Of a stretch of DNA of 64,000 nt, positions 23,251 through 63,851 are shown in pieces (position 1 is the stretch's first letter; every line of letters starts with the position of its first letter). The translations under genes were made by a program, and so were the position numbers. The notes beneath the pieces are model-generated. The model made no database searches. It saw only the letters and a program-made list of their open reading frames with translations, and was not told the origin of the DNA. Location: the IMG/VR virus record IMGVR_UViG_3300024297_000001. One strand, written 5' to 3'. This DNA comes from a virus (taxonomy: Duplodnaviria; Caudoviricetes).

Positions 23251-23255
23251 ACACA

Positions 23256-23263: not shown

Positions 23264-23274
23264 TGCGTAGTTAA

Positions 23275-23280
23275 TAAGTA
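23275..23280 (+). promoter_or_regulatory. Variant late box TAAGTA (divergent partner)
   Basis: aTAAGTA in the divergent intergenic region, ahead of the 23348 operon. Confidence 0.4.
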
Positions 23281-23347
23281 ATAGTGTGAGTGAAATTATT
23301 AAATTATCCGTATGGTCTGAAAAATATCAAAATATTGGAGAGAACGC

Positions 23348-31214: not shown

Positions 31215-31795
31215 GATTAACAGGACACAAAGCAGGAATTGGAAAAGCATTTTACGAATTATACAAACATGATTATGTTTGGGTACTGCTTGACAGAAAT
31301 GAAGAATGGGCATGTGATGTAAGAGATACTGGAAAAGCATTTGATCATTTACGTGATGTTGATATCTTTATTAACAATGTTTACTGTGAAAATACACAAA
31401 GTACACTGTTTGATATGTGGAGTGTGTTTAATCAAGACAAAGACAAGTTATGTGTAAACATAGGATCAGTTGTTGCAAATACTACAAATGATATTTTCTT
31501 TGAAGAAGATTATTACAAAAACAAATTAGAACTACACACAAAAACACATCAATGGAATAGTTTAAGACCTGAGTGTAAAGCAAGTCTTGTTGTTCCTGCA
31601 TTTTGTGATACAGACTTTGCAGGCAAAGATGTTTATAAAAGCAAAGAAGTATTAGAAGAACTAAGAACAAAGTTTCATTATTTTAAAAAACAACACAAAT
31701 TATTAAAACCAGAATCAGTTGCAAAAGTAATTAAGTTTATAATTGATGAATGGGAAAGTGGAAACCATATCAATACATTAGAGATGAGAAATTGA
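31205..31795 (+). CDS. Short-chain dehydrogenase-like (minimal SDR)
   Basis: TGHKAGIG, DIFINN, NIGS, YYKNK (YxxxK). Confidence 0.65.
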   Translation: MQVGLTGHKAGIGKAFYELYKHDYVWVLLDRNEEWACDVRDTGKAFDHLRDVDIFINNVYCENTQSTLFDMWSVFNQDKDKLCVNIGSVVANTTNDIFFEEDYYKNKLELHTKTHQWNSLRPECKASLVVPAFCDTDFAGKDVYKSKEVLEELRTKFHYFKKQHKLLKPESVAKVIKFIIDEWESGNHINTLEMRN

Positions 31796-32694: not shown

Positions 32695-32942
32695 CAAACG
32701 TAACACGCAAAGATGCATATAGAGTTTTTTGGTTAGTAAAAGGTCACTTTAATGCAACAGAAGATTGTATCTTTGATTGTTATGATAGTTATTTTAAAAG
32801 AGTTTGGTACATGGAAGAAACATATTTACATGAAGAAGGTTTTGAAGAAGCATACGCAAAGGTAACAAACACATATACTCAACGTGCTTGGGACAGAACA
32901 GTTGGTTATGGAACAGTGCCAGAGGAATACAAATGCGAATAG
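32691..32942 (+). CDS. Hypothetical protein
   Basis: 83 aa ORF, ATGA-coupled. Confidence 0.55.
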   Translation: MTNVTRKDAYRVFWLVKGHFNATEDCIFDCYDSYFKRVWYMEETYLHEEGFEEAYAKVTNTYTQRAWDRTVGYGTVPEEYKCE

Positions 32943-33481
32943 TTGTAACAGGTAATCCTAAGTATGAAGGATTATGCTCAGGTATATGGGAAGCCTACAG
33001 TCGTAATCAAGTAGAATTTATTGGTAGATGGAATGACTGGGATCTTACAGATGCTGACGCAGTAGCAGAATACGTAAAAGATCATAATGTATTTGTAAAC
33101 AGTCAATACGGTCCTAATGGCGAACAAGTAGAATTGTTACGTAAGGTATATGAAAAGTTTAATGGTGAACACATTATTAATATTTCAAGTACAACAAGTT
33201 ATTGGGGTGACGGTTATAATCCAGGCGACTATCTTAAAAACAAAACTGAACTTGATGAATTAAGTAAGAAGTATTCACAGTACGGAACATTTGGTAGTAG
33301 CAAAATTCGTGTAAGCAATATTGCGTTTGGTCAACTTGCATCACAAACACAATTAGATAAAAGCACTAATAATAAAATTAGTTTACTTGAAGCAGGTAAA
33401 CTTGTTAAATGGGTAATTGATAGTCCACGTAGTTACAACTTACACTATATGGCACTTGATCCTATACAAAGAGATCTTTAA
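32933..33481 (+). CDS. Short-chain dehydrogenase-like (minimal SDR)
   Basis: IVVTGN, VFVNS, INISST, YLKNK (YxxxK); SD GAGGA before ATG 32933. Confidence 0.6.
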   Translation: MRIVVTGNPKYEGLCSGIWEAYSRNQVEFIGRWNDWDLTDADAVAEYVKDHNVFVNSQYGPNGEQVELLRKVYEKFNGEHIINISSTTSYWGDGYNPGDYLKNKTELDELSKKYSQYGTFGSSKIRVSNIAFGQLASQTQLDKSTNNKISLLEAGKLVKWVIDSPRSYNLHYMALDPIQRDL

Positions 33482-34580
33482 GTTCCGGACAAAAATTTAA
33501 AACACTTGTATCTCTAATCTTATCTAAATCCTTAGTATAGTTTACAAACATATCTAATAGTTTACTATTGTTTTGTTCGTATGTTATGTTAGGCAACTTA
33601 TGTTTAATGTTGTGTAATATTTCATTAGGCAATACACGTGGATTCAAATAGGCAGGTTGTGCTACAACATTATTAAAGTATATACTCCAATTATCTTTTT
33701 TGTTAGCATCAAACCAATCTTGTATTTTATCCAAGTGTGAAATGTTATATGCCATTACAGTTACAGCAATAATAATTCTATCAAAGTCATATTGTTTTAA
33801 ATTATCATTTAGTTGTTCAAACGTAAAGTTCTTTCCACCTCTAATGTATTCATACAATCCATCAGTACCTTCAACACTTACAGTCCATTTAGTTTCGCCA
33901 TAATGTCTTGCAAGTTCTTGTACTTCCTCATCAACGATCGTACCATTCGTAGTCCAGTCAAGTGTAACATTTTTTGCAACTCCTAAGTCTATAAACTTCT
34001 GCAATATCTTTTTGTTTGCAGGTTCCATATAAGGCTCTCCGCCTTTAATACTAAGATAACGTAACCCCATAAACGGAGTAGGATCTTCAAATAGTCTTTG
34101 TATTATTTGTTCACTTTTATTAACATATCCAAACTCTGGATTGTCAATTCTTCTATGATATGGGTTACCATTTTTTGCAAGTTTCAATTCGTCCTTGACC
34201 CAAGCACTTGAATTGATTCCATCGCACATACGGCATTTCAAATTACAAATATTACTCATATTGAACTCCAAAAATTTGATATCGTGGAAGTTTTTTGAGT
34301 AATCATTATTGGATCCTTCAAGCATAGGATTCAAAATATCACGGAAGAATAATCTTCGGCTATGACCTACTGTAGCCTCTTTTAAAGCACATTGTTGGCA
34401 CTCGGGCGGTAACACTCCATTACGGATACTATCCTTTGTGTATGACGCTGTAAATGCGTTTAAGACGGTGTTTAAGGGCTCTTGTAGCACGTTTCCGTAG
34501 CGGTTTGTGTACACACCATCGGGTACAATATCGCCGTTAAAACGTACCAAAATACTATGCCAAGGTGCGTAACATTTCAT
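33462..34580 (-). CDS. Radical SAM protein with degenerate N-terminal SPASM-like region
   Basis: CNLKCRMC, KGGEP; N-terminal CYAPWH...GDIVPDG (CC replaced)...ECQQC; SD GGAGAG before ATG 34580. Confidence 0.9.
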   Translation of the reverse strand: MKCYAPWHSILVRFNGDIVPDGVYTNRYGNVLQEPLNTVLNAFTASYTKDSIRNGVLPPECQQCALKEATVGHSRRLFFRDILNPMLEGSNNDYSKNFHDIKFLEFNMSNICNLKCRMCDGINSSAWVKDELKLAKNGNPYHRRIDNPEFGYVNKSEQIIQRLFEDPTPFMGLRYLSIKGGEPYMEPANKKILQKFIDLGVAKNVTLDWTTNGTIVDEEVQELARHYGETKWTVSVEGTDGLYEYIRGGKNFTFEQLNDNLKQYDFDRIIIAVTVMAYNISHLDKIQDWFDANKKDNWSIYFNNVVAQPAYLNPRVLPNEILHNIKHKLPNITYEQNNSKLLDMFVNYTKDLDKIRDTSVLNFCPELKDLFV

Positions 34581-46569: not shown

Positions 46570-47184
46570 CTAATTCTCAGTAATTGTTATGTTGAATGCT
46601 GTCGTTATTCTCGGTACATCAGATTTTTGTACAGGAATACTATGATTTAAATAGGGTGGAAAGAATATCATATCGCCTTCTAAGGCGTCTGCATTAACGA
46701 CTTCTTTTGGCCACATTGTAGGTAAGTTATTTGTAATAGGCGTAGGAGCACTACTACGTATGCCATCGCTTGATGGATTATAAAATATTGTAGGAGTATG
46801 ATGTTCAGGATCGTACTTTACATAATGTACTGCACTAATTTGTATTGTTCTTGGACTTGATAAGTGATTGTGTGTTTCTCCCCAACCGCCTTTTCCTGTT
46901 ACGTTATACCAAGCATCAATACCAACCTTCCAGTTGTGCGAATCTTTATATCCGTATTCGTTTAGAAACTCTTGTATCGTTGATTGATACTTTGGAAGAA
47001 TGTCTTCCCAGTCTACTGGCCGAGCGCCTGAAAAATAATCACTGTATACATTGCAGAAATCGCAATTAGGACCTTTAACATTATATTCACTTTCTATGTT
47101 TGAGACGAAGAAACTTTTTAGTTCTTCTTGTTGCTTAACTTTTACCTTGTATATATCTGTTGAAAACAAAGTTTGTTTTATCAT
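46570..47184 (-). CDS. 2OG-Fe(II) oxygenase-like protein
   Basis: ETHNH, ISAVHYV, GDMIFFPPYLNHSI, RITTAFN. Confidence 0.7.
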   Translation of the reverse strand: MIKQTLFSTDIYKVKVKQQEELKSFFVSNIESEYNVKGPNCDFCNVYSDYFSGARPVDWEDILPKYQSTIQEFLNEYGYKDSHNWKVGIDAWYNVTGKGGWGETHNHLSSPRTIQISAVHYVKYDPEHHTPTIFYNPSSDGIRSSAPTPITNNLPTMWPKEVVNADALEGDMIFFPPYLNHSIPVQKSDVPRITTAFNITITEN

Positions 47185-49445: not shown

Positions 49446-49474
49446 ATTATACTACTTTTTAGTACTGTTGTCAA
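49446..49474 (-). promoter_or_regulatory. sigma70-type early promoter inside the 3' end of the upstream gene
   Basis: TTGACA-17 nt-TATAAT. Confidence 0.85.
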
Positions 49475-50180
49475 CCTGTTTATTTGCTTCTGCTTGTGCT
49501 TTATACTTTTCTTGTATTTTGGTTAGCACTTCTTTGTTCATAAACGGAATGGCATTCATTTCTTCGTGATTGAATGAACCCGTTAATCTTAAATCAAATG
49601 CTACACTAACTCTTGGATCTTTTGAATCATGCTCACCTGTATAGTGTTGTGTGCTACTCGGGAACATTACACAGCCACCTTTTTTATTTGGTAAGCCAAG
49701 TTTTGATTCAGGATCATAACAACTTCTGTAAAATGTTGCAGTTGAATAATCTTCCAAATGCATATTACCACTCAAATAAGAATCTGGTTGAGCACCGTGT
49801 GAGTGCGGTTCCATTGCTTCATTTTGTTTAAGAATGTTTGCCCAACATACAATCTGCAAGTCTTTAAGTTCAAGTTGTGCAGTTTGCACGTACTCAATAT
49901 ATGAATATCTTAAAAACGTTAGCAGTTCATTAAATGCAGGATCGTCTTGTGATAGTAAGTTATACTTTCCAAAACGTGTTGTAATATGATCTTTGCTTAG
50001 ACCTGTACCACCTGTTGAGGTATATTCGTAATCTAAGATAGTCTTCTCGTTATCAATTATCCATTTTTTAATGGCATCTACATGCTCATGGTCAGTCCAG
50101 TTTGTTAACCAAAGAGGAATATTCCAACTTGGTGCAAACTCTGTTAATGGATGAAAACTTTTAATTCTTACAATACTCAT
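49452..50180 (-). CDS. 2OG-Fe(II) oxygenase-like protein
   Basis: WAN..., EPHSH, LSGNMHL, GGCVMFPSSTQH, RVSVAFD. Confidence 0.7.
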   Translation of the reverse strand: MSIVRIKSFHPLTEFAPSWNIPLWLTNWTDHEHVDAIKKWIIDNEKTILDYEYTSTGGTGLSKDHITTRFGKYNLLSQDDPAFNELLTFLRYSYIEYVQTAQLELKDLQIVCWANILKQNEAMEPHSHGAQPDSYLSGNMHLEDYSTATFYRSCYDPESKLGLPNKKGGCVMFPSSTQHYTGEHDSKDPRVSVAFDLRLTGSFNHEEMNAIPFMNKEVLTKIQEKYKAQAEANKQVDNSTKK

Positions 50181-51114: not shown

Positions 51115-52014
51115 TTATGTTCCTATGGCGTTACCAAACAAGTAAACGTGTACTCGTGCCGCCACATTATATCCTCTCTGAAAAGCCATCTTTGCAACAT
51201 CACCTGCCGTTGCAGTTTGCTCTTCTTCTCTGGCTCCTACAGGCATAACCCATACAGGCCATTCAACGCCTTCTGCTCTAAATTTTTCTATAACAGAATC
51301 CATTTCATCCCATTGTCTTTGTTCAGAACCAACAACAAACTTTAATTGTCCTGCTTTAGATAGTTCTGCATATTCGCCAACTACTTCTGGAATAATTGCT
51401 TTTTTACTTTCTTCACCTGCTACTGTCCATAATTTAGGACTACAACTAAAGAATACTTCTTCATTAATTCTTTTTACCCATTCTTTAAATGGATCTCTTA
51501 ACTTCTGTGTGCCGTTAGTTTCAAACGTCATGCTATCAGGCAAGTTACCTTGTCTTTCAAGTTCTTCATATATTCCAACACTTGCCGCCTGTCCTGTAAC
51601 CATTAAAGGTTCACCGCCAGTAAAACATAAGTGTTGTCTTTGTTTACTCATAGGATGAAGAAACAATCCTTCTGGATTGCTATCTGTTTTTAATATATCA
51701 ACAATCTTATTTGCTAATACAGTAGGAGTTTCTTGTCCCATTAAGTGTTTATACTTCTTTGCCCAAGTATAAGAACTATCGCAACCTTTTTCCCATACAG
51801 GTAAGTCTTCAACTCTTTTTACTTGGCTTACGTCATAATCCAGGAACGGCAGGTCATATGTATCCGGGTTAGTTGGATCTACTTGACCAAAGCCGCTACA
51901 CTGTAAGTTACACAAGAAGAATCTAATCCATGCTGTCGGAACACCAGTATAGTGTCCTTCACCTTGAATGGAGTGAAATATCTCACTGTAATAATACTTC
52001 TTCTCAGTTGTCAT
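51115..52014 (-). CDS. queE: 7-carboxy-7-deazaguanine synthase (QueE-like radical SAM)
   Basis: EIFHSIQGEG..TGVP..WIRF, TGGEP, ETNGT, SCSPK, RVHVYLFG; Cys motif split as CX3CX38C. Confidence 0.85.
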   Translation of the reverse strand: MTTEKKYYYSEIFHSIQGEGHYTGVPTAWIRFFLCNLQCSGFGQVDPTNPDTYDLPFLDYDVSQVKRVEDLPVWEKGCDSSYTWAKKYKHLMGQETPTVLANKIVDILKTDSNPEGLFLHPMSKQRQHLCFTGGEPLMVTGQAASVGIYEELERQGNLPDSMTFETNGTQKLRDPFKEWVKRINEEVFFSCSPKLWTVAGEESKKAIIPEVVGEYAELSKAGQLKFVVGSEQRQWDEMDSVIEKFRAEGVEWPVWVMPVGAREEEQTATAGDVAKMAFQRGYNVAARVHVYLFGNAIGT

Positions 52015-52026
52015 TATAAGAGCCTC

Positions 52027-52710
52027 CTAACAAGCAAACTGTTGTTGCAGTTTTACGTTGTCTATAAACTCTTTTTTAGTTGCTGGATCGTCTTTAAATG
52101 CTCCACGTAATACAGTAGTTTGCGTTAAAGAACTATGTGCTTTAATACCTCTGTTCTCACAACAACCATGTGTTGCTTGTACATAAACACCAACGTGTTC
52201 ACTACCTGTTTCTTTTTGTATTGCATTTGCAATCATAACATTAAGTTCTTCTTGCAATGTTCCACGTGTTGCACACCATTGTGCGATCCTTGTGTACTTA
52301 CTAAGACCTAAAAGTTTCGGACCTGCAATGATACCAATGTATGCTACTCCTTTAACAGTCTGGTGATGATGTGAACATAAACTTGTAAGTTCACTCCTTA
52401 CTACCAACATACCTTCATAACCACCTTCAATGTAGTTTGGAAATGCACTTGGGTTAGGCATCTTATCATAACGTCCGGCCATAATCTCATTAATGTACAT
52501 CTTAGCCATACGTCTTGCAGTATCCATACTGTTAGGATCTGTTTCTGTATCAATTAACAGTTTTTGCAATACATTTTCAAAAGCAGGAATTGCCTCTTCG
52601 ATAAGTGCTTGTTTGTCACCTTCTTCGAGTACTTCGCTAATATTATCATTAGCCCAGTAACGAATACCTTGCTCTTTTAGTTTTGCTTTTATTTCTTCTA
52701 CTTTACTCAT
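52027..52710 (-). CDS. folE: GTP cyclohydrolase I
   Basis: SLCSHHH, GLSKYTRI, QEEL, HGCCENRG; SD GGAG. Confidence 0.95.
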   Translation of the reverse strand: MSKVEEIKAKLKEQGIRYWANDNISEVLEEGDKQALIEEAIPAFENVLQKLLIDTETDPNSMDTARRMAKMYINEIMAGRYDKMPNPSAFPNYIEGGYEGMLVVRSELTSLCSHHHQTVKGVAYIGIIAGPKLLGLSKYTRIAQWCATRGTLQEELNVMIANAIQKETGSEHVGVYVQATHGCCENRGIKAHSSLTQTTVLRGAFKDDPATKKEFIDNVKLQQQFAC

Positions 52711-52759
52711 TTACTTCTCCGATGTTAAGGCAGTGGATTGCCTGTCTTAGTTGTATTAT

Positions 52760-52788
52760 ATTATACGATATATTTAGATCAATGTCAA
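52760..52788 (-). promoter_or_regulatory. sigma70-type promoter of folE-queE, with TAAATA in the spacer
   Basis: TTGACA-17 nt-TATAAT; 5' UTR hairpin AGGCA/TGCCT at 52728-52743. Confidence 0.85.
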
Positions 52789-52805
52789 ACACTTTATATA
52801 TGGAT

Positions 52806-53009
52806 TTAACCAAAGTATTTGTTGAGCATTTCTAAACGATCGTGCGCCTGAGCCATTTTATCCAATTCCTTTTGGATGGTCTCAATAATATCTGAGTGTT
52901 CACCAATTCCAACTACCTGTTGCATGTACACTTCGATATTAGCCTTGTGCAAGTCAATCTCTGCTTCTGCATGTTTTCTTGCCGCATCTATCATTACTTG
53001 TTTCAACAT
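52806..53009 (-). CDS. Hypothetical protein (helical, 67 aa)
   Basis: SD GGAAG; VGIGEH motif. Confidence 0.65.
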   Translation of the reverse strand: MLKQVMIDAARKHAEAEIDLHKANIEVYMQQVVGIGEHSDIIETIQKELDKMAQAHDRLEMLNKYFG

Positions 53010-53815
53010 AAACTTCCTTTCATGTTAGGGATATATTCGTTTGCAATAAGAGTATGTGCTTCTAAATTGAAATGCTCATCATCTACTACAAAGTCTTGTA
53101 ATTCACCCTTGGTTAATAAAAACTGTGTTGCAGTTTTTTCTGATACGTCCGCTTGTACGTTCCCAATGATATTTAGATCTTTAGGTAGCCAAGTCTGGTC
53201 GTTTATGGCAAAGATTTTTAACACCGCGTTGTTTTCTTTGCACATTTGATTCCAAAGATATACTTCTTTGAAAAACTGTCTTTGATTAACAACAGTCATT
53301 ACTTCGTACCATGCTTTTACTCTTTGGTAACCTTCCTGTTGTAAGTTTGGTTCAACTAAATCAAACGGATCAAACTTCATACTTAATGTTGGTTGTATTG
53401 CATAATCACCAGACATAGTTATACGTCCGCCATCAAAACTTTTAAGTTCGTCATTCCACATATTAATATTATAACAATCAATACGTCCTTTTGTTTCTTC
53501 TTGCATCATATGAGCATCAAGTGGAATAATGTTTTCGTAATAACAAGGATTACTAAATCCTAATCTATAACGATTCCAATATGTTTGTTGTATAACAACT
53601 TCGTCAATGTCGTCATACTTTTTAAACAAGAAAGCAAGACGCTCACTATAATCATACCAACCTCTACCAGGACAAGCAAATATCACACCGTCCTTGTTTT
53701 GATTGTTAATATAAACTTCCGCCCAGTTGTTATCATTCCAACGGTCACGTATACCATCGGGAGCAGGGAATTGATATCCTGCACTATGACTACAACCTAT
53801 AACGGCAGTTCTCAT
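53003..53815 (-). CDS. SGNH/GDSL-like protein
   Basis: VIGCSHSAG, C-terminal DDEHFN (DxxH); TAATG start at 53815. Confidence 0.5.
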   Translation of the reverse strand: MRTAVIGCSHSAGYQFPAPDGIRDRWNDNNWAEVYINNQNKDGVIFACPGRGWYDYSERLAFLFKKYDDIDEVVIQQTYWNRYRLGFSNPCYYENIIPLDAHMMQEETKGRIDCYNINMWNDELKSFDGGRITMSGDYAIQPTLSMKFDPFDLVEPNLQQEGYQRVKAWYEVMTVVNQRQFFKEVYLWNQMCKENNAVLKIFAINDQTWLPKDLNIIGNVQADVSEKTATQFLLTKGELQDFVVDDEHFNLEAHTLIANEYIPNMKGSLC

Positions 53816-54207
53816 TATACGCAATCTCCTTCAAGAAATAAATCTGGTTGTTTAGGATTTGAAATTGTATACTTTTGCATATTAGGAATAACTCCACGTA
53901 CACCGCCTTTAGGATCAGACATGTCGCCTTTGCGTCTTGGAATTAAATGTACGTGTGGATACATAACAGTTTGTCCTGCTTCTTCTCCAACGTTCTGTCC
54001 TACATTAAAAGCATCACAGTAGCCACGTTCAACCCAATCGTAACCCCATTTATATGCCGCTTCCCAACACTTAACAATATCTTGCCAAGACTGCTCTTTC
54101 GGTACAAAAAGAAGATGTCCTTCTGTTACTGGATACTTGTCTTTAAAAACTGTAAAACCTTTAGCATCAAGTAAAACATCTTTCCATGGTGTTTCGTTAA
54201 ATTGCAT
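53815..54207 (-). CDS. HIT family nucleotide hydrolase
   Basis: DKYPVTEGHLLFVPK, GQTVMYPHVHLIPR. Confidence 0.9.
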   Translation of the reverse strand: MQFNETPWKDVLLDAKGFTVFKDKYPVTEGHLLFVPKEQSWQDIVKCWEAAYKWGYDWVERGYCDAFNVGQNVGEEAGQTVMYPHVHLIPRRKGDMSDPKGGVRGVIPNMQKYTISNPKQPDLFLEGDCV

Positions 54208-54780
54208 TTAATATACTCCTACGTTTTCCCAAGGATAAACCAACCAGACGTCTTCCTCGGCTTTGTTAACTTCATGACAACTATAACTCACCTGGCTAAA
54301 GTTGCTGGCTAAATTTTCTGTAAGTGTAGCAAATTTTACACTGTTTCCCCATACCGCATTCCAGGCAACATCTTCTTGTGGCAAACAACCACTTTGCCAA
54401 TCATTCTTAATCCAATTAAATGTAGCACCAGTATCGTTGATGTCATCTACAATAAGTATCTTCTTTCTTAAACTTGGATCCCATCTTGAACCTGCAACCT
54501 TAGTTGTTGTACCTGTGGTATCTTCATTGTAACCAAATGCATCACTGGCCATCCAGGCGGCACTATCATTATAGCCACCTTTCTCTCCATCACGTAAACT
54601 TACCTTAAGTGCTTCGCAACGTATTCCTGTCATGTTACTAATAATAGTTGCAGGAACATTACCACCTCGTGTAATGCCTACAATATAGTCAGGACGCCAA
54701 TCGTCCTTGTACATCTGATTTATAATACTTTGACACATATTTTCTACGTCAGTCCAAGTATAATAATGCTTCTTAACCAT
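54208..54780 (-). CDS. Purine phosphoribosyltransferase (Gpt-like)
   Basis: IVGITRGG, ILIVDDINDTGATF, WLVYPWE; SD GGAG before ATG 54780. Confidence 0.85.
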   Translation of the reverse strand: MVKKHYYTWTDVENMCQSIINQMYKDDWRPDYIVGITRGGNVPATIISNMTGIRCEALKVSLRDGEKGGYNDSAAWMASDAFGYNEDTTGTTTKVAGSRWDPSLRKKILIVDDINDTGATFNWIKNDWQSGCLPQEDVAWNAVWGNSVKFATLTENLASNFSQVSYSCHEVNKAEEDVWLVYPWENVGVY

Positions 54781-55405
54781 AGTTTCTCCTAATTTGTAAT
54801 ACGTCTTGATTACCTTGTTGAACAATTATTCCAGTACCGTTGCCTTTACCTGCCTCAACAAATTTAAGTGCAGGAACAAATCTTGCAGTGTTTCTAAATC
54901 CTGTAGCACTATGATTAATGCTACTCTTAAAGAAACAGAACCTGCCTGGTATTGGTGCGATACTTAACACCAATGGATCTGTGTTTCCTTGTATATCTTG
55001 AAGTTTATATCCATCAAGATCATCTTTAGTAATATAGAACTTTGTTTCTCCTTTATCATCAGGCTTCCATGATGTATTGCAGTAATAAAGCAATGTCCAA
55101 TCACAATCATCTTTGTGATAGTATGCATCTTCGCCTGTTGCAAAAAAGTTTAAGTTACTTCTACGGTATTCTAATCCTTCAAGGTCTTTTAGTTTTTCAT
55201 TAACTACGTTCCATAAAGTTTGCCATGAATGAGTAGGCTCAAAGTCAAAGCATTGTAATCCTGTAGGTGGTTGATCTGGATTGTCTCTCGTACCCCACTT
55301 AAACGGAACATCTTGAATATTCTTTTCAAGAGCACCTATAGTATTAGGTGTAAACACGTTATCGTATGTTATTATAAGTCCGCCAAAGTAAGATGTTCTA
55401 TCCAA
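54773..55405 (-). CDS. 2OG-Fe(II) oxygenase (prolyl-hydroxylase-like)
   Basis: YYHKD, TLLYY, GETKFY, INH...RF. Confidence 0.75.
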   Translation of the reverse strand: MDRTSYFGGLIITYDNVFTPNTIGALEKNIQDVPFKWGTRDNPDQPPTGLQCFDFEPTHSWQTLWNVVNEKLKDLEGLEYRRSNLNFFATGEDAYYHKDDCDWTLLYYCNTSWKPDDKGETKFYITKDDLDGYKLQDIQGNTDPLVLSIAPIPGRFCFFKSSINHSATGFRNTARFVPALKFVEAGKGNGTGIIVQQGNQDVLQIRRNYG

Positions 55406-55916
55406 TGTTATTCTCCCGTTCGTTCAAGTATTCTTCATTATGAACCCATCTGTAACCTGCATTGGCCCATTCATTACCTGAGTTACCATATACGAAACGT
55501 ACAAATCCCCATTCCTTTTCTTTACGTCCCATATAAAAAATACTCCAACAAGGTATTTCATTTCCATCTTCGTCTTTAGCAAGTTCTAACCAATGTAAGT
55601 CATCTGCTTTTCTAAAACGGAAACTACCAGGTCCACGCCATACTTTTGTTGAACCAACGACAGCACCTTCCTGTGAATGTATTGGAATGTGTTCCCAATA
55701 TCCACCTTTAATAATAAATGCTCCCCAATTCCAAGGATGATCATGCAATGTAGGTTCATCACTTACAAGAACCTTATGCAATGTAATATTGAAAGGAAAC
55801 TTCTTTCTATCTTTTAGAAACAAGTAGTAACGAACAAGATATGGTATCTTGCCTGTTCTATCTGTAATAACTCGGCGTCTTCCGAGCATGTCCATTATTT
55901 TAGAAAGGAAGTTCAT
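55398..55916 (-). CDS. Cupin-like protein
   Basis: LHDHPWNW...GGYWE...HWLEL. Confidence 0.55.
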   Translation of the reverse strand: MNFLSKIMDMLGRRRVITDRTGKIPYLVRYYLFLKDRKKFPFNITLHKVLVSDEPTLHDHPWNWGAFIIKGGYWEHIPIHSQEGAVVGSTKVWRGPGSFRFRKADDLHWLELAKDEDGNEIPCWSIFYMGRKEKEWGFVRFVYGNSGNEWANAGYRWVHNEEYLNERENNIG

Positions 55917-56202
55917 CTTTATAATCGTCTTTCACTAAATTGTATACTTCTAAAAATTTTTCATATTGTATTTTTAAAGCAGGATATTGTTTAATCATTT
56001 CTTGTACTTTGTATTCGCTTGGCCATGTTTCTTCTTTGTATGATGTGCCTGCAAAGTCAGTGTTAATTGTTAATGGAGTAGTACCGTCTTGACCATCTAA
56101 GTCTGAAATGTCAAATGTGTATGTTGGTGTTTCACTCACTATGCCGCCAACTGTTTCACCACTGTATGTAAGTGTATAATCAGTGCTATCATCGTCCATC
56201 AT
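55900..56202 (-). CDS. Hypothetical acidic protein
   Basis: SD GGAG; acidic composition. Confidence 0.6.
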   Translation of the reverse strand: MMDDDSTDYTLTYSGETVGGIVSETPTYTFDISDLDGQDGTTPLTINTDFAGTSYKEETWPSEYKVQEMIKQYPALKIQYEKFLEVYNLVKDDYKDELPF

Positions 56203-57244
56203 TATCTCCAATAGTTTTATATAATGCTTTTCCTGAAAAGAACTCGCCTTTCAGTTTATTAACTTGTTGTTGTACTTTTAGCAAGTACTTGTCATAGTTC
56301 TCAACATAATCTGTAATAAGATTCATTACTTTTTGTTTATGTTTTTTGTAACTATCTAAGTCTTGTGTCCATTCACTTGGATATAAAAACTCTGGCAATG
56401 CCATTTCACTGTAACTTAATCTATCTGGCATCATTGGCAATGCATCTACAAGAGCACCTTCATACCAACTAATACCTAATGTTTCTTGTAAGTTAGCACT
56501 AAACACAACCTTTGCTTCACCTAATAAATTATGATATTCATTTTTAGTAAGTTCACGTTCTTGACAAATAACAAATTCGTATTGTGTCATGCTTTCTTTT
56601 AAATCTCTAAATATATCAACTTGCTTCTCTGGAGCAATTCTATGCGGAAACAAAATCATGTTTTTCTTTGTCATGCCTTTGTACTGTGCAAAACTATTTG
56701 CCAAGTACTCCATAGGCCAACCTACTATGTTTGACTTTGTTAATAATGTTGGAAAACTTTGTATATACAGTTGTTTATGAAACTCTGTTGCAAAAAAATT
56801 ATTATCATAGCATTCATACATACTACGTTCTGCACTTCTACACCAATCAGCATCACCAATTAATCTTCCTAAGAAGTCTTGTGGATCATAACTGCCGGCG
56901 TGCCACATACCACCTACCTTAATCTTAACACCAAGTAATTCAGCCATATACTTTAATTGTATTACAGTTGGATTCCAAGCATCTGTGTATAGGAAGTAGT
57001 CGCCATCTTTAATTTCACCATTAGCAAATAGTCTGCTAATTTCTAACATTTGCTGAGACTTATAATTGTTAGTCCCTGCAAAGTTAAGGAATGCCCCAGG
57101 CGTTGTAGCCTGAGGCACTTCTCCGCCACTAATAACAACTACCTCAGAATTAGTTGCACGTTTCATTTGCTTTGGAAGATGTTCCTTCCACTGCTTTGTG
57201 TAACGTGTATCAACTGCTTCAATGTCTACGATGTAAATTGTCAT
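56189..57244 (-). CDS. GT-B fold glycosyltransferase within the deazaguanine island
   Basis: WHAGSYD, FPHRIAPEKQ, ETLGISWYEG (ExFGxxxxE-like), PDRLSYSE. Confidence 0.8.
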   Translation of the reverse strand: MTIYIVDIEAVDTRYTKQWKEHLPKQMKRATNSEVVVISGGEVPQATTPGAFLNFAGTNNYKSQQMLEISRLFANGEIKDGDYFLYTDAWNPTVIQLKYMAELLGVKIKVGGMWHAGSYDPQDFLGRLIGDADWCRSAERSMYECYDNNFFATEFHKQLYIQSFPTLLTKSNIVGWPMEYLANSFAQYKGMTKKNMILFPHRIAPEKQVDIFRDLKESMTQYEFVICQERELTKNEYHNLLGEAKVVFSANLQETLGISWYEGALVDALPMMPDRLSYSEMALPEFLYPSEWTQDLDSYKKHKQKVMNLITDYVENYDKYLLKVQQQVNKLKGEFFSGKALYKTIGDNDGR

Positions 57245-57254
57245 TAGTGTCTCC

Positions 57255-57857
57255 TTATTTTAGTGCATACTTCTTTTGAAGTTGTTTCAACAATAGTCCG
57301 TATGCTGGTAGGAATACAATTAAGCCTACTGCAATTTTGAGTACAGTTTGTGATCCTGCAATCTCAACCCAGTTAGCCGCCATGTATTCATCTGCCGAGT
57401 TATTAAATGCGACAGCAAAGAACGTATACGTGTCAATGATGTTCGCCGCGATAGTAGATACCGCAGGTGCTAACCACCAATTCTTTGTAAACGCTTCTCT
57501 AATGTATTGGAATACATATACATCAAGCATTGTACCAATAGCATAAGCCGTTGCCGAAGCAAAACCAATACGCATTGCTACTGATTGTGGTGCTCCTTCT
57601 GCAAGTACAACTGCAATGGATCCAATGATTGCCAATGGATACGCCGCCGCGATTGTTGATCTTGCAATATTTTTTCCAAGTAGTCTAACAGTCAAGTCCG
57701 TTGCTATTACAACTAATGGGAAAGTAAATGCCGCCCACGTTAGTTTCACACCTGCAATTTCTACAGGGATTGCCACCAACGCATTTGAAACAGTGATCAC
57801 GATAACGTGAAGTGCCACTAATTTCATCAGCATACTTTTATCTACGTCTTTGAACAT
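57255..57857 (-). CDS. yhhQ: preQ0/preQ1 transporter (YhhQ/VUT family)
   Basis: SN..V...V...G..LT...FTFP..VIATD; ASATAY..G..LDV.VF; STIAANIIDT..FF.VAF; multi-TM. Confidence 0.85.
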   Translation of the reverse strand: MFKDVDKSMLMKLVALHVIVITVSNALVAIPVEIAGVKLTWAAFTFPLVVIATDLTVRLLGKNIARSTIAAAYPLAIIGSIAVVLAEGAPQSVAMRIGFASATAYAIGTMLDVYVFQYIREAFTKNWWLAPAVSTIAANIIDTYTFFAVAFNNSADEYMAANWVEIAGSQTVLKIAVGLIVFLPAYGLLLKQLQKKYALK

Positions 57858-58091
57858 TTAAGTCCTCCTATACATCTTCTTTTTATTTGGCTTGTACTTA
57901 GGCTTCTTGCCTTGAGTGAACAAAACGTATGTTCTCCAAGCCTCGCTTTTGTTGTTATAAAGATCACGTTCGTCAAAGCGATAAGAACGTCCGTAACCCG
58001 TTACCCAAGAAGTCTTTGAACAAAAGTCCTTGAATTTCTCGAGATCAGTGAACACCTGCTCATAGGCTTCACGATTAAATTTGAGTGACAT
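57858..58091 (-). CDS. Hypothetical protein
   Basis: 77 aa, SD AGGA. Confidence 0.6.
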   Translation of the reverse strand: MSLKFNREAYEQVFTDLEKFKDFCSKTSWVTGYGRSYRFDERDLYNNKSEAWRTYVLFTQGKKPKYKPNKKKMYRRT

Positions 58092-58103
58092 CGCATTTTT
58101 CCT

Positions 58104-58544
58104 CTATCTTGCATACTCAATATGGGCACCGTTTTCTCCATCTTCACTTACGTCAATATGGACTTCACGGCCTGGGTGTTTAGCATTGATCTCTTTGTAA
58201 AGATCATCTGCCATCATTTCACAACTCTTATAATCTAACTCTAATGTTTTCTCCTCATAAAGTTTTTCTAACCATCTTTTAAATTGTATAAACTCGATAT
58301 CTCTATCATTGTGTGTAACTGTGATTGCTACCTTAAAATGAAAGATGTGTCTGTGTGGATATCCTAAGAAACTAACATCATACTCATCACCTGTTGCAAG
58401 TGCTGGATCATCTAATGCCGCCGGATACTTGTGAATACCTTCCTTACGGAAAGTTACCCAAATCATTCGTTTTGCTGTATTCATAATTCTTGCCTTGTTG
58501 TCTTTATCTGATTGTTCTTTAATTAACTGATCTGTCATACTCAT
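58104..58544 (-). CDS. QueD-like T-fold protein with LxxxHRHxF motif (DpdL-like candidate)
   Basis: FLGYPHRHIFHFKV, DIEFIQFK, SCEM, VSEDGENGA; lacks the canonical QueD CxxxHGH. Confidence 0.7.
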   Translation of the reverse strand: MSMTDQLIKEQSDKDNKARIMNTAKRMIWVTFRKEGIHKYPAALDDPALATGDEYDVSFLGYPHRHIFHFKVAITVTHNDRDIEFIQFKRWLEKLYEEKTLELDYKSCEMMADDLYKEINAKHPGREVHIDVSEDGENGAHIEYAR

Positions 58545-59773
58545 ATTATAAAGCCTTTCGCCTCATTTGTCAATGGTTTTTCTTGATTTATTTTGGTTAC
58601 CAAGTCATCGAATACGTTCAAAATATAATCTGTTTCGACTTTCTTAGTTTCATAAAAACTACAAAATTTAATTGTAGTTGTCGAGTATTGCCAAATACCG
58701 CAGTTATTTAGGAATGCTCGAATTTCGTTTAGTGTCTTTACGTCTCTACCTTTGTCCATTTTACAATTTAAGAAACTGTTTTTATATGATACATCAAAAG
58801 TTTCTACCTGTTCAAGTATCTCTGCAAGTTGCACCAAAAATTTTGTAACTTGATTTGTTACGTTAAACATCAATTTATTTTTATCACAGTATTCAAGTGC
58901 GGCCACTACCGCAGTTGCTCCTACAGGATCTTGGCTACGTGAGTTACCAACTGCTATAGGCAATGCCCAACCTGTGTCTGTTGGCTTTGAAATCTTATCA
59001 TACATCTCTTTTGAAAGGCAAGTGATTGCAAAAGAACTAAATCCACCTGCAAGTGCTTTACCAAAACAAGCAATGTCAGGTTGTAGATTACGTTCCATGC
59101 TATGTGCGAAACTACCAAATCTATACATACCTGTAAATATTTCGTCAGCAATAATTTTATAATCGTATTTGAATTTACCTTGTTTAATTTTCTTAATAAG
59201 TTCATCGGACATTTCACTAACACCGTTAAACCAACTTACAGTATCACACAATACGGCACAAATGTTTCCTTGGTGTTTTTCTAATACAGTTGTAAAGTCA
59301 TCATCATAAAAGTCTACATACTCTACATCAGGAAGGTGTGTACTCCAACCTCTGTAATCACTCATTGCCCAACCACTTAAACTTCCGCTATGGAAACTTC
59401 CTTTACGTACAAGTACTTTGTTTTTCTTTTTATTGTTGTAGTATTGGAAACAAAACTTTAGTGCATTGTCTGTTGCATCACTTCCGCTATGTGCTGGAAT
59501 GAATGCAAAATAATCTGGAAGTTTCTTTTGTAATATATCTTCTAACTTTGTCCATATCTCAGGTTTAGCATTCCAATCGTTGCTTGGCCAAACTCTATGT
59601 GCATGAGAAATATGATATTGTATGTATTCGTTGTTAAAGCCTAATACGTTGCAACCTTTACCTGCACTAATGTCATAGTAGTTCTTTCCTTCCGAATCAA
59701 TAAACCTTCCGTTAAAACTCGTAACAGTAGGCATTGTGTCAGTTGGATCGCAAAAACTATGCAGTAGTTTCAT
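58541..59773 (-). CDS. Class III PLP aminotransferase
   Basis: YYDISAG...LG, SFHSGS, IADEIFTGMYRFG, PDIACFGKALAGG. Confidence 0.9.
   Translation of the reverse strand: MKLLHSFCDPTDTMPTVTSFNGRFIDSEGKNYYDISAGKGCNVLGFNNEYIQYHISHAHRVWPSNDWNAKPEIWTKLEDILQKKLPDYFAFIPAHSGSDATDNALKFCFQYYNNKKKNKVLVRKGSFHSGSLSGWAMSDYRGWSTHLPDVEYVDFYDDDFTTVLEKHQGNICAVLCDTVSWFNGVSEMSDELIKKIKQGKFKYDYKIIADEIFTGMYRFGSFAHSMERNLQPDIACFGKALAGGFSSFAITCLSKEMYDKISKPTDTGWALPIAVGNSRSQDPVGATAVVAALEYCDKNKLMFNVTNQVTKFLVQLAEILEQVETFDVSYKNSFLNCKMDKGRDVKTLNEIRAFLNNCGIWQYSTTTIKFCSFYETKKVETDYILNVFDDLVTKINQEKPLTNEAKGFII
58545..58573 (-). promoter_or_regulatory. sigma70-type promoter in the 3' end of the aminotransferase; predicted +1 is the A of ATG 58538
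   Basis: TTGACA-17 nt-TATAAT-atgagt-ATG. Confidence 0.85.
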
Positions 59774-60280
59774 TTAGTCCTCCGAGGGGCTATCGTCGCC
59801 GTACTTTGACCAATCTGTAAATTTATCCCATTGTAGTAACGGGTGAACTTGATGTACCCATACACCTGGATTAGAATGATCAAAATCAGCATCGTCAATC
59901 TTAATACAAGCATTGTAGTTAAGTTGTTTTACGTATGGTAGTTTAACACTAATCATACTAATAAAATTATGTCTTTCATTGTAACCTGTTTCAAGTACCC
60001 AGTCATGATACTTTGCATCATAGTCAAGTGTTACAAGATATTTCTTGTCAAGCAATCCAAACACAAGATCGTCCCAACTTTCTTTAGGAACAAAACTATG
60101 ATTAGCACCTAAGTAAATATGATCTACTACGTGTTTCTTTGCTTGTGCTAATACATCTTCTAATGGTTGACAACCTGTAACAAACAATGTGTCCATACCT
60201 TCAGCAGGAGTTTTTTCAACTTCATAACCTGTAAAGTAGATTACATCATCTTTTACGCCATCTGCATATTGTCTTTCCAT
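59774..60280 (-). CDS. Hypothetical protein directly downstream of dpdA
   Basis: Start reassigned to MERQ (SD GAGGA); motifs EVEKTP..G..TLFV and HIYLGANHSF. Confidence 0.7.
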   Translation of the reverse strand: MERQYADGVKDDVIYFTGYEVEKTPAEGMDTLFVTGCQPLEDVLAQAKKHVVDHIYLGANHSFVPKESWDDLVFGLLDKKYLVTLDYDAKYHDWVLETGYNERHNFISMISVKLPYVKQLNYNACIKIDDADFDHSNPGVWVHQVHPLLQWDKFTDWSKYGDDSPSED

Positions 60281-60281
60281 A

Positions 60282-61742
60282 TTATTCCTCTGTAAATAAA
60301 TTGCCAAACTGTGTTTGTGCGTTTACTGTTTTCTTTCCTGTTGCGCCACGTGTTCCAATAATTGACATCCAGAACTTACTATAATGTTCAATTACTGCGT
60401 TCGCTTCATCTCTGCTGTCTGTTGCAAATATTGCCTCCACAACATCTCTAAAAAATAACCTGTCGAACCGTTCCTCCACAAGCATGTTCGGAATGACTCC
60501 ATTGTCGTATTGTCTATTTGCTTCTTGTACTGCATTAATATGACTCCATACATTATGACCCATCTGGATCGCATATGAAAAACTATCCCAAGATGTTTTT
60601 CCTTCTTTGCCTATTTTGTTCAAGTCACCTTGTGCATACTTACAAATGTCTTGTGCAGTTAGTCCTGTTGTAATAGGCGAATCTTTAAAACTTGTATGCT
60701 TACCTTCTCTAACAAATGCTTGACTGAATGGCGTTGTATCAGTTGCTAATCCTTTATCATCAATGCTTGGCACCATTCTGTAAACCCATTTCTTACGATC
60801 TAATGTTTCAAGTTCGCAATAAATTTGTCCATTAGCAGTTGCTAAGAACGGACTTGCACAATCAAACGTAATCATAAAGTTTGGATTATGATACTTACGT
60901 ACTGCTCTTTGTATATCTGTAAGTAGTGTTGCCCACTCTAATTTACTTGTACCTAAGAAGTGCATTACATCATGTACGCCTTTCTCAAGTAGTCCATCAA
61001 ATCTAAGTGCAACAAGTCTTTTAAGAACAAGATGAATATCACACATATTCTGTCCACCCATACTCCAACCATTAAAGTGTGTGCCAGGATACTTAACTGG
61101 ATCACAATAGTCTTTCATTTGCTGATACCAATCTTCTGCGTCAGCATGATTTTCACCTTGTAATACATTTAAGAATTTACAAGCACCACTTCTATGTTTC
61201 ATAAAGTAGTCATTGTTAATACGTGTAGCATTAACGGCATCTTGATAATTGTCAATTCCAGTTGCTTTAGCACCTTCGGGAGACCGTGCTACCCAAGCCG
61301 GAATATCAAGTATCATTCCATAGTCCATATATGCGTCCATCCATCTAAGAACTTGTTCACGTTTCTTTTGTGCTTTAGGACAATTAGGATTCTTCCAATC
61401 GCCTTCCCATACACCTTTACCTATCTGGAAACCACCACTGTCACCTAACAACCAAGAAGTGTTACGATCTCTATCTCGTACCATATCTTCTTTGGGTGCG
61501 TCCTTGTTAATATCAAGTTCGGCGTGACCTGCGGAATACAAACTCCATTGATACTCAAACAACGACTTACTCGGATTAAGCCAGTTCATGCTCTCAACAC
61601 CATTTGTAAAGTGTTTAGGTATACGATTATATTCTACGTACTCCTCACGTCTTTGCTTACCTACAAAGGTTGCAAAGAAGCCACTCAGTGCTGGCAAGAA
61701 AGTTGCGTAATCTTTTTGTGCAGTTGTTAAGTTAGTATTCAA
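60282..61742 (-). CDS. dpdA: DNA-guanine transglycosylase (DpdA, probably DpdA2-type)
   Basis: TGT motif GDSGGFQ, ILDIP, NVLQG, WSMGG, MHFLG, TFDCASP; TTG start; clustered with folE/queE/yhhQ. Confidence 0.8.
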   Translation of the reverse strand: MNTNLTTAQKDYATFLPALSGFFATFVGKQRREEYVEYNRIPKHFTNGVESMNWLNPSKSLFEYQWSLYSAGHAELDINKDAPKEDMVRDRDRNTSWLLGDSGGFQIGKGVWEGDWKNPNCPKAQKKREQVLRWMDAYMDYGMILDIPAWVARSPEGAKATGIDNYQDAVNATRINNDYFMKHRSGACKFLNVLQGENHADAEDWYQQMKDYCDPVKYPGTHFNGWSMGGQNMCDIHLVLKRLVALRFDGLLEKGVHDVMHFLGTSKLEWATLLTDIQRAVRKYHNPNFMITFDCASPFLATANGQIYCELETLDRKKWVYRMVPSIDDKGLATDTTPFSQAFVREGKHTSFKDSPITTGLTAQDICKYAQGDLNKIGKEGKTSWDSFSYAIQMGHNVWSHINAVQEANRQYDNGVIPNMLVEERFDRLFFRDVVEAIFATDSRDEANAVIEHYSKFWMSIIGTRGATGKKTVNAQTQFGNLFTEE

Positions 61743-62700: not shown

Positions 62701-62729
62701 ATTATACTTACAAAATTATGATTTGTCAA
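62701..62729 (-). promoter_or_regulatory. sigma70-type early promoter overlapping the end of the epimerase
   Basis: TTGACA-17 nt-TATAAT. Confidence 0.85.
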
Positions 62730-63453
62730 GTGCTTTTTCCTGGCTGACGAATTCTAATGCATCAATTTTTGATTTCCAACCAATTGATGATAAATGACTA
62801 ATGTCTGCGACATTGTCTTTACGTTCATGCTCGTCACCGTTTCTTTCTTCATAATTTTCTAAGCCTACTGCTTTGCAGTAATCCGATAAAGGTCTTGACG
62901 TACCCGTTCCTACATCAATTACTCCTGTTAAATCACTTTCTAACAATTGAGTAACTGCTCTACACACATCAGATATATGTATAAAATCTCTTTTATGATC
63001 TACATTAATAAATGTAACTTCATTGTTTAATAATTTTGGTACAAACATATAGTCTCTACCTGCTCCACCAATTACAGTTGTAAATCTCATACCTAAACTA
63101 TCTTCAGGTGCAATACGTTCTACAACATATTTTGACATTGCATATGGATTTCTTTGTGGCTCTTTTGCAGTGCTTGAACTTGCATATAAGATCCTTGCAT
63201 TTGGAAATGCTTTAAACAATCTATTTGATGCAACAACATTATTATCAAAATATTCTTGCGGAACTTCAAGGCTTTTTCTTACACCACTCATTGCCGCTAA
63301 ATGAACTACTGCATCTACTTGATAATTTAACTCACAGTCAAGTAAGTCATTGCCAGACTTAATGTCAATTGGTATTACGGTATGCATACCTGCCCAATAC
63401 TTCTTAAGTACTGAACCTATCATTCCGTCACTACCTGTTAGTAATATTCTCAT
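62716..63453 (-). CDS. NAD-dependent epimerase/dehydratase
   Basis: TGSDGMIG, VVHLAA, YASSS, YAMSK, RDFIHISD. Confidence 0.9.
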   Translation of the reverse strand: MRILLTGSDGMIGSVLKKYWAGMHTVIPIDIKSGNDLLDCELNYQVDAVVHLAAMSGVRKSLEVPQEYFDNNVVASNRLFKAFPNARILYASSSTAKEPQRNPYAMSKYVVERIAPEDSLGMRFTTVIGGAGRDYMFVPKLLNNEVTFINVDHKRDFIHISDVCRAVTQLLESDLTGVIDVGTGTSRPLSDYCKAVGLENYEERNGDEHERKDNVADISHLSSIGWKSKIDALEFVSQEKALDKS

Positions 63454-63851
63454 TATGTTATTTCCTCCTCGATGTATCTTTTTAATTCATGGTCTTGTAC
63501 ATCGTTTGGTATATTATTTTTATAAAAGATCTGATAACTATCCGAACCATACTTGCCTACGCCATATAGTTTAGTAGCATCTTCTCCGTCCCAATTTAAA
63601 AAGTCTTTTGACATTTGTCTAATTGTGTTTTCACGTCTATTATAAAAGCCTAAACTCTTAATAACTTCTATTACAGTTTTCCTATCGCTTTTTAAATACT
63701 TTTGTGGAGTAGGCCATTTGTCAAAGAACTCTGGTAATACTCTTTTAACCTGTACCCTACCTGTTTGATTCAAACAAATAACACCTACAAAGTGTTGCCA
63801 TAAGTTAGCAACCTGTTGTTGTACCATTAAATCAGGATCCATTATTTTCAT
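63453..63851 (-). CDS. Minimal HhH-GPD DNA glycosylase (MBD4-like)
   Basis: VICLNQT, FFDKWPTP, LGFYNRR, LYGVGKYGSDSY, DHEL..Y. Confidence 0.8.
   Translation of the reverse strand: MKIMDPDLMVQQQVANLWQHFVGVICLNQTGRVQVKRVLPEFFDKWPTPQKYLKSDRKTVIEVIKSLGFYNRRENTIRQMSKDFLNWDGEDATKLYGVGKYGSDSYQIFYKNNIPNDVQDHELKRYIEEEIT

Follow-up and report, generated by a model that had tools for sequence, protein, structure and literature searches.

A DpdL-type 7-deazaguanine gene module with a built-in glycosyltransferase may place a sugar-bearing base in phage DNA

IMG/VR record IMGVR_UViG_3300024297_000001, from an uncultured marine giant phage (Duplodnaviria; Caudoviricetes), provided the 64,000-nucleotide stretch of DNA analyzed here, which we call the window. 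Between positions 51115 and 61742 it carries a tightly packed island of minus-strand genes: a DpdL-type 7-deazaguanine system with a built-in glycosyltransferase (GT) and two further conserved genes, enlarged here by an unusual insert of aminotransferase and YhhQ genes. It is established that FolE, QueD and QueE make 7-carboxy-7-deazaguanine (CDG) and that enzymes of the tRNA-guanine transglycosylase (TGT) family exchange guanine for 7-deazaguanines. A preliminary description, made from the sequence alone, had suggested that the island modifies DNA with a 7-deazaguanine and that its GT might glycosylate that base. The first suggestion is supported, with the qualification that QueC is missing. 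As to the second, we propose that the system puts a sugar-bearing 7-deazaguanine into the phage DNA, a reading in which our belief and our doubt are about equal.

DpdL and a divergent DpdA define the system

DpdL is a QueD paralogue without the catalytic cysteine, with LxxxHRHxF in place of QueD's CxxxHGH, and has been proposed as the CDG decarboxylase that gives the 7-deazaguanine deoxynucleoside dDG in Cellulophaga phage phiST (Cui, Hutinet et al., NAR 2023; PMC10516641). Decarboxylation by DpdL is a prediction, and heterologous attempts failed; dDG is reported in the DNA of DpdL phages, with phiST DNA carrying plain dDG (PMC10516641). The T-fold protein encoded at 58104..58544 (P0002) had been described as QueD-like. 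Its LGYPHRHIF stretch instead fits the DpdL signature. In an alignment that included phiST DpdL (A7), H64, H66 and F68 were invariant and R65 was nearly so, and the two proteins aligned across the conserved histidine and glutamate positions. By tblastn, P0002 matched phiST DpdL (CGPG_00067) at E 8e-8, with 34% identity over 82% of the query, and was 70% identical to the DpdL of Sinorhizobium phage Phosso and 58% identical to that of Pseudomonas jumbo phage PA5oct. From motif and match, we assign the protein as a DpdL and a predicted CDG decarboxylase. Because the T-fold protein is of this type, the base made here is most likely 7-deazaguanine itself, as in phiST. Such a base offers the GT no usual hydroxyl acceptor, a difficulty that the earlier scheme did not address.

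The gene at 60282..61742 encodes a 486-residue protein (P0001) with the motifs LLGDSGGFQ (D101) and TFDCASP (D294). Searches of the PDB with the single sequence or with a five-sequence profile found no match. Only a broader profile found TGT: A6, made from the window protein and its counterparts in PA5oct, Phosso, three metagenomic contigs (L092, L094, L096) and phages ACP17, BUDD and BCSR5. TGTs accounted for 45 of its 47 PDB matches (best E 4.9e-4), which covered TGT residues ~99-372. Both aspartates were invariant in A6 and aligned with the TGT catalytic aspartates. A small P0001 family profile also aligned with the DpdA set of ACP17, BUDD and BCSR5 (hhalign 95.7%, E 8.4e-9). The Pfam TGT model misses every A6-type DpdA except for a weak match to that of BCSR5. 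Of the TGT zinc motif CxCxxC...H, the CxCxxC part is absent from the window protein and present in the BCSR5 homologue; we read the zinc site as a feature of tRNA TGTs and not a requirement for phage DpdAs. Similarity to the 259-residue DpdA3 of phiST was not detectable (hhalign 4%). The closest cultured relatives are in PA5oct and Phosso, at 29-36% identity (36% to PA5oct gp168), and metagenome protein sets, Tara included, hold more than 7,900 relatives, many of them marine. On these profile and motif matches, we classify P0001 as a divergent DpdA of the TGT superfamily.

A GT4-like glycosyltransferase within the module

The GT gene occupies 56189..57244 (P0003). Relatives gathered by an exhaustive profile-free search form a family of 1,240 clusters at 50% identity, and the alignment used for an AlphaFold2 (AF2) model held the window GT and 115 of them (n=116). 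The model (pLDDT 96.7, pTM 0.93) has the two-Rossmann GT-B fold. Its best Foldseek matches in the PDB and Swiss-Prot were retaining GT4 and GT5 enzymes, namely BshA, MshA, glycogen synthase and PimA-type mannosyltransferases (probability 1.0, TM 0.6-0.7). The two glutamates of an EX7E motif (E254 and E262, in QETLGISWYE) were nearly invariant across the 116 sequences, and the family profile matched the glucosyltransferase AmGGT (8xsg, E 7.8e-6) across the EX7E region. Glycos_transf_1 (PF00534) was recognized in 76/116 family members, with a best E of 4.5e-9. Fold, motif and matches bear out the earlier GT-B call, and we conclude that the gene is predicted to encode a real nucleotide-sugar glycosyltransferase, of GT4-like GT-B type.

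Within the GT4 family, QTMAN/GTDC1 attaches a sugar to queuosine, a derivative of 7-deazaguanine found in tRNA. By analogy with eukaryotic mannosyl-queuosine, might the DpdA-like enzyme and the GT together make a sugar-bearing queuosine-like base in tRNA rather than in DNA? The presence in the window of YhhQ, a queuosine-precursor transporter family, would fit this idea. The acceptor of QTMAN is, however, the cyclopentenediol of tRNA queuosine, and its domain (PF12038, QTMAN_N) was found in 0/116 GT family members at E 0.01; nor did QTMAN appear in the top 30 fold matches from Swiss-Prot, although the two may be distant kin within GT4. A search of the entire window yielded no tRNA gene, and YhhQ is rare among relatives. 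DpdL phages carry dDG in their DNA (PMC10516641). PA5oct has the same type of DpdA together with the GT and DpdL, and its DNA resists several restriction enzymes that cut at G-containing sites and is a target of modification-dependent END nucleases (PMC12191111). We regard a tRNA target as highly improbable, and hold to DNA as the substrate.

The glycosyltransferase accompanies DpdL and DpdA across phage lineages

In 11/11 lineages with usable genomic context, the GT has DpdL, a DpdA-like gene or the pair of them no more than a few kilobases away, and this holds down to GT identities of 25-33%. In PA5oct, gp168 (DpdA), gp167 (GT) and gp166 (DpdL) are followed by gp164 (short NAD epimerase), gp163 (phosphoribosyltransferase, PRTase) and gp162 (QueE). 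ACP17 has QueD, FolE, a small protein (gp122), DpdA (gp123), GT (gp124), DpdL (gp125) and QueE (gp126). The order is glycosylase, DpdL, GT, FolE and QueE in Phosso; GT, DpdA, DpdL and QueE in BUDD/X1; and PP-loop protein, PIG-L-like deacetylase, small protein, GT, DpdA and QueE in BCSR5. Most of these genes had escaped annotation: DpdA, GT and DpdL of PA5oct, ACP17 and BCSR5, as well as Phosso DpdL, are listed as 'hypothetical protein', while the Phosso GT is a 'glycosyltransferase' and the BUDD DpdA a 'queuine tRNA-ribosyltransferase'. Among complete cultured genomes that carry the module, a canonical QueD is encoded in 5/5 and a QueC over the cut-off in 0/5.

Metagenomic lineages, with distant GT representatives 28-36% identical to that of the window, show the same association. 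Contigs L091-094 carry DpdL, GT, DpdA and a second GT (a GT4 at L092:2772-3758 by tblastn), and L095 is another linked lineage. L096 has DpdL, GT, DpdA, a CE4 polysaccharide deacetylase, a methyltransferase and QueD. L097/098 has FolE, DpdL, a homologue of the small protein, a radical SAM gene, GT and a DpdA-like gene; L098 is a short contig, where the GT is flanked only by that last gene and a clamp-like gene. L099 reads QueD, QueE, FolE, a Rossmann-type oxidoreductase (by eye), a second GT4-like gene (by motifs), an ADH_N gene (by Pfam), GT and DpdL; the contig, 8.9 kb long, yielded no DpdA-like gene.

Several of these operons hold sugar-tailoring genes (L096:10303-11073; L099:3655-5834). 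BCSR5 (L007 16267-17634) has the PIG-L-type deacetylase (E 4.7e-5) alongside its PP-loop (PAPS-reductase-like) protein. GlcNAc-type deacetylases of two unrelated kinds, together with the second GTs, point to variation between lineages and to chemistry on N-acetylhexosamine (HexNAc). In some lineages, a HexNAc is probably the sugar used, and the picture as a whole suggests several different decorations among lineages.

Perhaps the module makes plain dDG, and the GT works on something else, be it a protein, some small-molecule intermediate or a component of the host, with regulation or history keeping it beside the module? Plain dDG is proven in DpdL phages without the GT (PMC10516641). 7-Deazaguanine presents no obvious acceptor atom, and the module always lies among early replication genes, where co-expression could hold genes together. 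Yet the GT sits between DpdA and DpdL, or abuts them, even where GT identity has fallen to 25-33%. The sugar deacetylases and second GTs in the same operons also speak against this account, as does the constant presence of the GT in loci collected through DpdL, described in the next section. Further, E. coli carrying only dpdL and dpdA of ACP17, without the GT and the small protein, made no dDG, and the authors suggested that further enzymes are needed (PMC10516641). The ACP17 operon has two more conserved genes, which could account for that failure; a sugar-bearing product would explain it. Hence, we think it rather unlikely that dDG is the end product and that the GT works elsewhere, and we prefer a GT that acts within the deazaguanine pathway.

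In L097 and L098, the gene directly after the GT (L097:4329-5402; L098:1295-2314) has DSGAHS in place of DSGGFQ, with HGFA and SVDS motifs further on. It matched no Pfam family and is followed by a clamp-like gene. On its motifs alone, we take it for one more variant of the DpdA-like type, as yet unclassified.

Core and accessory genes in marine relatives

IMG/VR holds hundreds of contigs related to the window. The longest are 182 kb and are rated ~50% complete, implying genomes of ~350 kb. We compared 80 related loci, of which 31 span DpdA to QueE. The usual order is DpdA, small protein, DpdL, (77-residue protein), GT, (103-residue protein), cupin, (2-oxoglutarate [2OG] oxygenase), PRTase, HIT, (273-residue protein), 67-residue protein, FolE, QueE and exonuclease. 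Conservation over the 80 metagenomic loci argues that this clustering is not due to chance. The small protein, DpdL, GT and PRTase were each present in 31/31 spanning relatives, and the core of the module is DpdA, the small protein, DpdL, GT and PRTase. FolE was found in 29 of the 31, HIT in 28, the cupin in 26, the 2OG oxygenase in 7, the aminotransferase in 2 and YhhQ in none.

Seeding on the GT or DpdA could favor such linkage. A search of IMG/VR seeded with a DpdL alignment avoids this and returned 80 loci, 45 of them with at least 5 kb on each side; its scope is DpdLs that share 66% identity or more with that of the window. All 45 had the GT and all 45 had DpdA, with a median gap of 281 bp between GT and DpdL. 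FolE was present in 43, the small protein in 38, YhhQ in 4 and the aminotransferase in 2. Co-occurrence of this GT family with dpdA, which the preliminary description had named as a way to examine its proposal, was therefore positive in every lineage sampled (11/11 lineages; 45/45 DpdL-seeded loci). This ties the GT functionally to the module; the deazaguanine glycosylation that had been suggested for it is a proposal.

The small protein beside DpdA ('Orph177', 59774..60280, 168 residues from ATG) had been labeled an orphan. It is a conserved core gene, the fourth core component: besides its presence in all spanning relatives, it has homologues in ACP17, where gp122 adjoins DpdA, and in L097 (a 186-residue gene product, E 6e-23). 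An AF2 model (pLDDT 86) gives an alpha/beta domain. Foldseek against the PDB and AFDB clusters returned no informative match, and a protein-atlas feature search provided no usable lead. In a wide VIA-align search, no match exceeded Z 6.6, under the noise level of 7-8; partial-barrel matches to QueE kept recurring at Z 6.1-6.2 and amount to no more than a lead. By hhalign, PA5oct gp164, BUDD x143, BCSR5 QRE00064 and phiST CGPG_00066 were not significant matches. Orph177 has an EVE..TLF..HxY pattern in common with BCSR5, by eye only; BUDD x143, which a pattern scan missed, shares only an N-terminal IGxEVEG stretch. In phiST, CGPG_00066 (159 residues, L100 7323-7802) occupies an orphan-like position between DpdL and DpdA and has no detectable similarity to Orph177.

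Two genes that had figured in the earlier proposal are accessory. The class-III (omega) aminotransferase gene (58541..59773) is confirmed as such by PF00202 (118.8 bits; cut-off, 30.5). Of the solved sequences, ArgD, BioA and putrescine aminotransferase come closest to it, at ~1e-16, and it falls far under every NCBIfam equivalog cut-off, so no substrate can be assigned; it is a generic, very divergent omega-aminotransferase. It stands at the junction between Orph177 and DpdL in 9/67 loci; otherwise these two genes lie ~100 bp apart. YhhQ (57255..57857) was likewise identified correctly, as a member of the YhhQ/Vut_1 transporter family (PF02592, E 2.5e-24; 86.8 bits, cut-off 27.2), and occurs in 5/63 related loci that hold both DpdL and the GT. 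These frequencies mark both genes as sub-lineage inserts. They may be lineage-specific add-ons that vary the decoration or import precursors.

In one speculative route, the preliminary description had given the aminotransferase a central part: interconversion of 7-formyl and 7-aminomethyl deazaguanine, then reduction or hydroxylation, then glycosylation. On that route, the aminotransferase would be essential to the base made here. Omega-aminotransferases do use aldehyde/amine pairs, and the gene keeps the same junction in nine relatives at 42 to 85% identity, which suggests long residence and not a recent hitch-hike. However, it is absent from that junction in 58/67 related loci and from 43/45 DpdL-seeded loci, and no homologue lies beside the deazaguanine genes of cultured phages. 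Nor was any carboxylate reductase, QueC or QueF found that would supply an aldehyde or nitrile. We consider an essential aminotransferase route improbable; at most, the enzyme adds a tailoring step in one sub-lineage.

A proposed pathway and its weak points

We propose the following scheme. FolE, QueE and a QueD from some other part of the genome would make CDG, and DpdL would convert it into 7-deazaguanine, as predicted in the literature. The divergent DpdA would then exchange guanine in phage DNA for 7-deazaguanine, a step suggested by the conserved TGT catalytic aspartates and by homologues in phages whose DNA resists restriction at G-containing sites. Finally, the GT4-like enzyme would add a sugar from a nucleotide-sugar donor, acting either on DNA that already holds the base or on the free base ahead of its insertion. 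The sugar might be attached at the exocyclic N2, at O6, as a C-glycoside at C7 or C8, which are electron-rich, or at a hydroxyl that the cupin or 2OG oxygenase of this lineage had added. DpdAs of GT-bearing lineages have 400-550 residues vs 259 in phiST, and the longer proteins would allow a bulkier substrate.

The PRTase (54208..54825, type I, purine-like, PF00156) has 6-oxopurine PRTases (GpT-2, HGPRT) as its nearest solved sequences. In its simplest role, it would recycle the guanine freed by exchange to GMP and on to GTP for FolE; alternatively, it might make a deazaguanine nucleotide.

In its fuller form, the proposal holds that guanine is replaced by a hexose- or HexNAc-bearing 7-deazaguanine and that, in this sub-lineage, the aminotransferase and YhhQ make a further, amino-modified variant. 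We hold this form slightly more tentatively than the general one.

Several observations weigh against a sugar-bearing base. The weakest point is the acceptor: 7-deazaguanine, having no hydroxyl, offers nothing obvious to a retaining GT4 enzyme. The ACP17 operon has neither the cupin gene nor the 2OG gene that might install a hydroxyl, and tblastn detected no homologue of the window copies in the PA5oct locus. The DpdL phages phiST, RHph_I1_18, Ahp1, Bakedbeans, D479 and BUCT-ZZ01 have no GT homologue at E 1e-3. Since DpdL occurs without the GT in phiST kin and others, the GT seems to have been added onto the DpdL pathway. The window's own GT matched no Pfam family at E 0.01. DpdA and GT are mildly acidic (isoelectric points of 6.2 and 5.7), giving no hint of DNA binding. 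Linkage within a replication-gene neighborhood could partly reflect shared expression timing, and it is from conserved gene linkage only that we infer the sugar chemistry of GT-bearing members, the transfer step included.

Where would the sugar donor come from? An NAD-dependent epimerase/dehydratase gene had been noted ~1 kb past dpdA and cast as a partner of the GT. The gene is there (62716..63453, minus strand, 245 residues, short for its family; PF01370, E 4.5e-20), 974 bases past the DpdA gene, and it recurs, as gp164 in PA5oct and in 44/69 marine relatives with enough upstream DNA. We also considered a UDP-sugar dehydrogenase as an obligatory donor supply and rejected it, having found it in 0/5 complete cultured genomes and 2/5 partial marine relatives.

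The window does hold a sugar- or aminocyclitol-type tailoring island among its structural genes (20198-33500, within a larger block of ~15.2-39.8 kb). It includes an amidinotransferase (21701-22669; StrB1 inosamine-phosphate amidinotransferase, E 2.2e-57), a DegT-family fragment (22666-23256), UDP-sugar/GDP-mannose dehydrogenase-family genes (23348-24532 and 26955-27707), radical SAM genes (25999-26958 and 31750-32694) and an Asp/Asn hydroxylase-like gene (28302-28919). An unusual sugar donor could come from this island, but 5/5 cultured genomes with the GT module lack the dehydrogenase.

Comparison with known systems

phiST resembles the window in having a DpdL with LxxxHRHxF, FolE, QueD and QueE to make CDG, no QueC, and a TGT-superfamily DpdA near DpdL with one small gene (CGPG_00066) between them and replication genes alongside. 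It differs in having no GT homologue, in its short and dissimilar DpdA3 (259 residues, against 486 here), and in lacking PRTase, HIT, cupin and epimerase genes, with MazG present instead.

The closest cultured relative of the module is that of PA5oct (Wroclawvirus), with identities of 36% for DpdA, 44% for the GT, 58% for DpdL and 38% for QueE (gp162). It shares the PRTase, the short epimerase, and exonuclease and clamp-like neighbors, whereas no Orph177 homologue, cupin, HIT, aminotransferase or YhhQ was detected at its locus. Neighbors common to the window and its PA5oct and Phosso relatives are the exonuclease, the clamp-like protein and an ATPase. The authors of the PA5oct study noted only QueE and a PTPS in this phage (PMC12191111).

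The logic of an odd DNA base that is then decorated by a GT is familiar from glucosyl-hydroxymethylcytosine of T-even phages (AGT/BGT) and from base J (JBP and JGT). In both, the sugar is carried on a hydroxymethyl pyrimidine, and phage lineages vary the decoration. The present case differs in that the acceptor would be a purine analogue without a known hydroxyl. Neither T4 AGT nor BGT was among the top 50 PDB fold matches of the window GT.

Our literature search found eight 7-deazaguanine bases described in viral DNA, none of them sugar-bearing (including PMC10516641). It found no sugar-bearing deazaguanine in DNA, no discussion of the GT in the module, and no organism reported to have a glycosylated purine in its DNA. 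If the proposal is right, the glycosylated deazapurine would represent a DNA base of a new class, with a bearing on restriction evasion, on modification-dependent defenses such as END nucleases and deazaguanine glycosylases, and on the sequencing and enzymology of such DNA. It would also reveal population-level diversification of purine hypermodification, much like the variation of sugars on hydroxymethylcytosine in T-even phages. The module is very common in metagenomes, and a sugar-bearing base is directly testable because five cultured phages (PA5oct, ACP17, Phosso, BUDD and BCSR5) share its core.

Other genes of the island and the window

The gene content listed in the preliminary description is real, as judged by Pfam, PHROGs and NCBIfam searches of window open reading frames (ORFs) together with structure and motifs, apart from an 'SGNH' gene. 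For the window's own GT, DpdL and DpdA, none of the HMM libraries makes the call, and their assignments come from the other lines of evidence given above. The protein so named (53003..53824, 273 residues) gave 0 matches in Pfam, PHROGs and NCBIfam; it belongs to no family that we could assign and is an accessory gene (10/31 relatives).

At one end of the island lie genes for a 299-residue QueE-like radical SAM enzyme, the predicted CDG synthase (51115..52014; phrog_2076, E 1.7e-53), and for FolE, GTP cyclohydrolase I (52027..52710; PF01227, E 2.9e-37). The QueE-like protein matched NCBIfam QueE models far under their cut-offs. Its cluster cysteines look split: CNLQC supplies C34 and C38, and the next is only C78, in the context GCDSSYTW. 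Compared with the E. coli motif, this implies an insert of ~39 residues within the radical SAM cluster motif.

As had been noted, queC, queF and a canonical queD are absent from the window. QueC, QueF and QueD families had 0 Pfam matches among 45 scanned ORFs, PHROGs, the sole library used on ten further ORFs, showed no family of these types, and tblastn with a relative's QueD found no match. In one marine relative, QueD lies ~40 kb from the island.

Three more island genes complete the set. The HIT-family nucleotide hydrolase/transferase (53815..54207; PF01230, E 1.6e-9) is near-core. The cupin-like protein (55398..55916; phrog_4786, E 2.2e-30) is recognized by PHROGs alone, as 'cysteine dioxygenase', and had no Pfam match and no PDB sequence match. 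The 2OG-Fe(II) oxygenase (54773..55405) scored 23.3 bits against PF13640 (cut-off, 27) and matched phrog_274 at E 2.9e-18. It is one of three such genes within 9 kb (46570-47184, 49452-50180 and 54773-55405), and the copy within the island need not be part of the pathway.

A short HhH-GPD glycosylase-like gene (63453-63851, 132 residues) adjoins the epimerase. Among relatives (L016, L018, L042, L044 and others), the HhH-GPD gene moves within the island, often to a place between PRTase and HIT, and in Phosso a 'glycosylase' gene (L004:19379-19912) lies directly upstream of DpdL. The gene may be a partner of the modified base or a counter-measure tied to it.

The window is AT-rich (~35% GC) and phage-like along its full length; no GenBank phage matched the island by megablast. 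From ~39.8 kb to the window end, nearly all genes are on the minus strand. At the other end, positions 2-7972 hold an ORF of at least 2,656 residues that is open at the 5' window end, presumably a structural gene, and other large plus-strand genes come after it.

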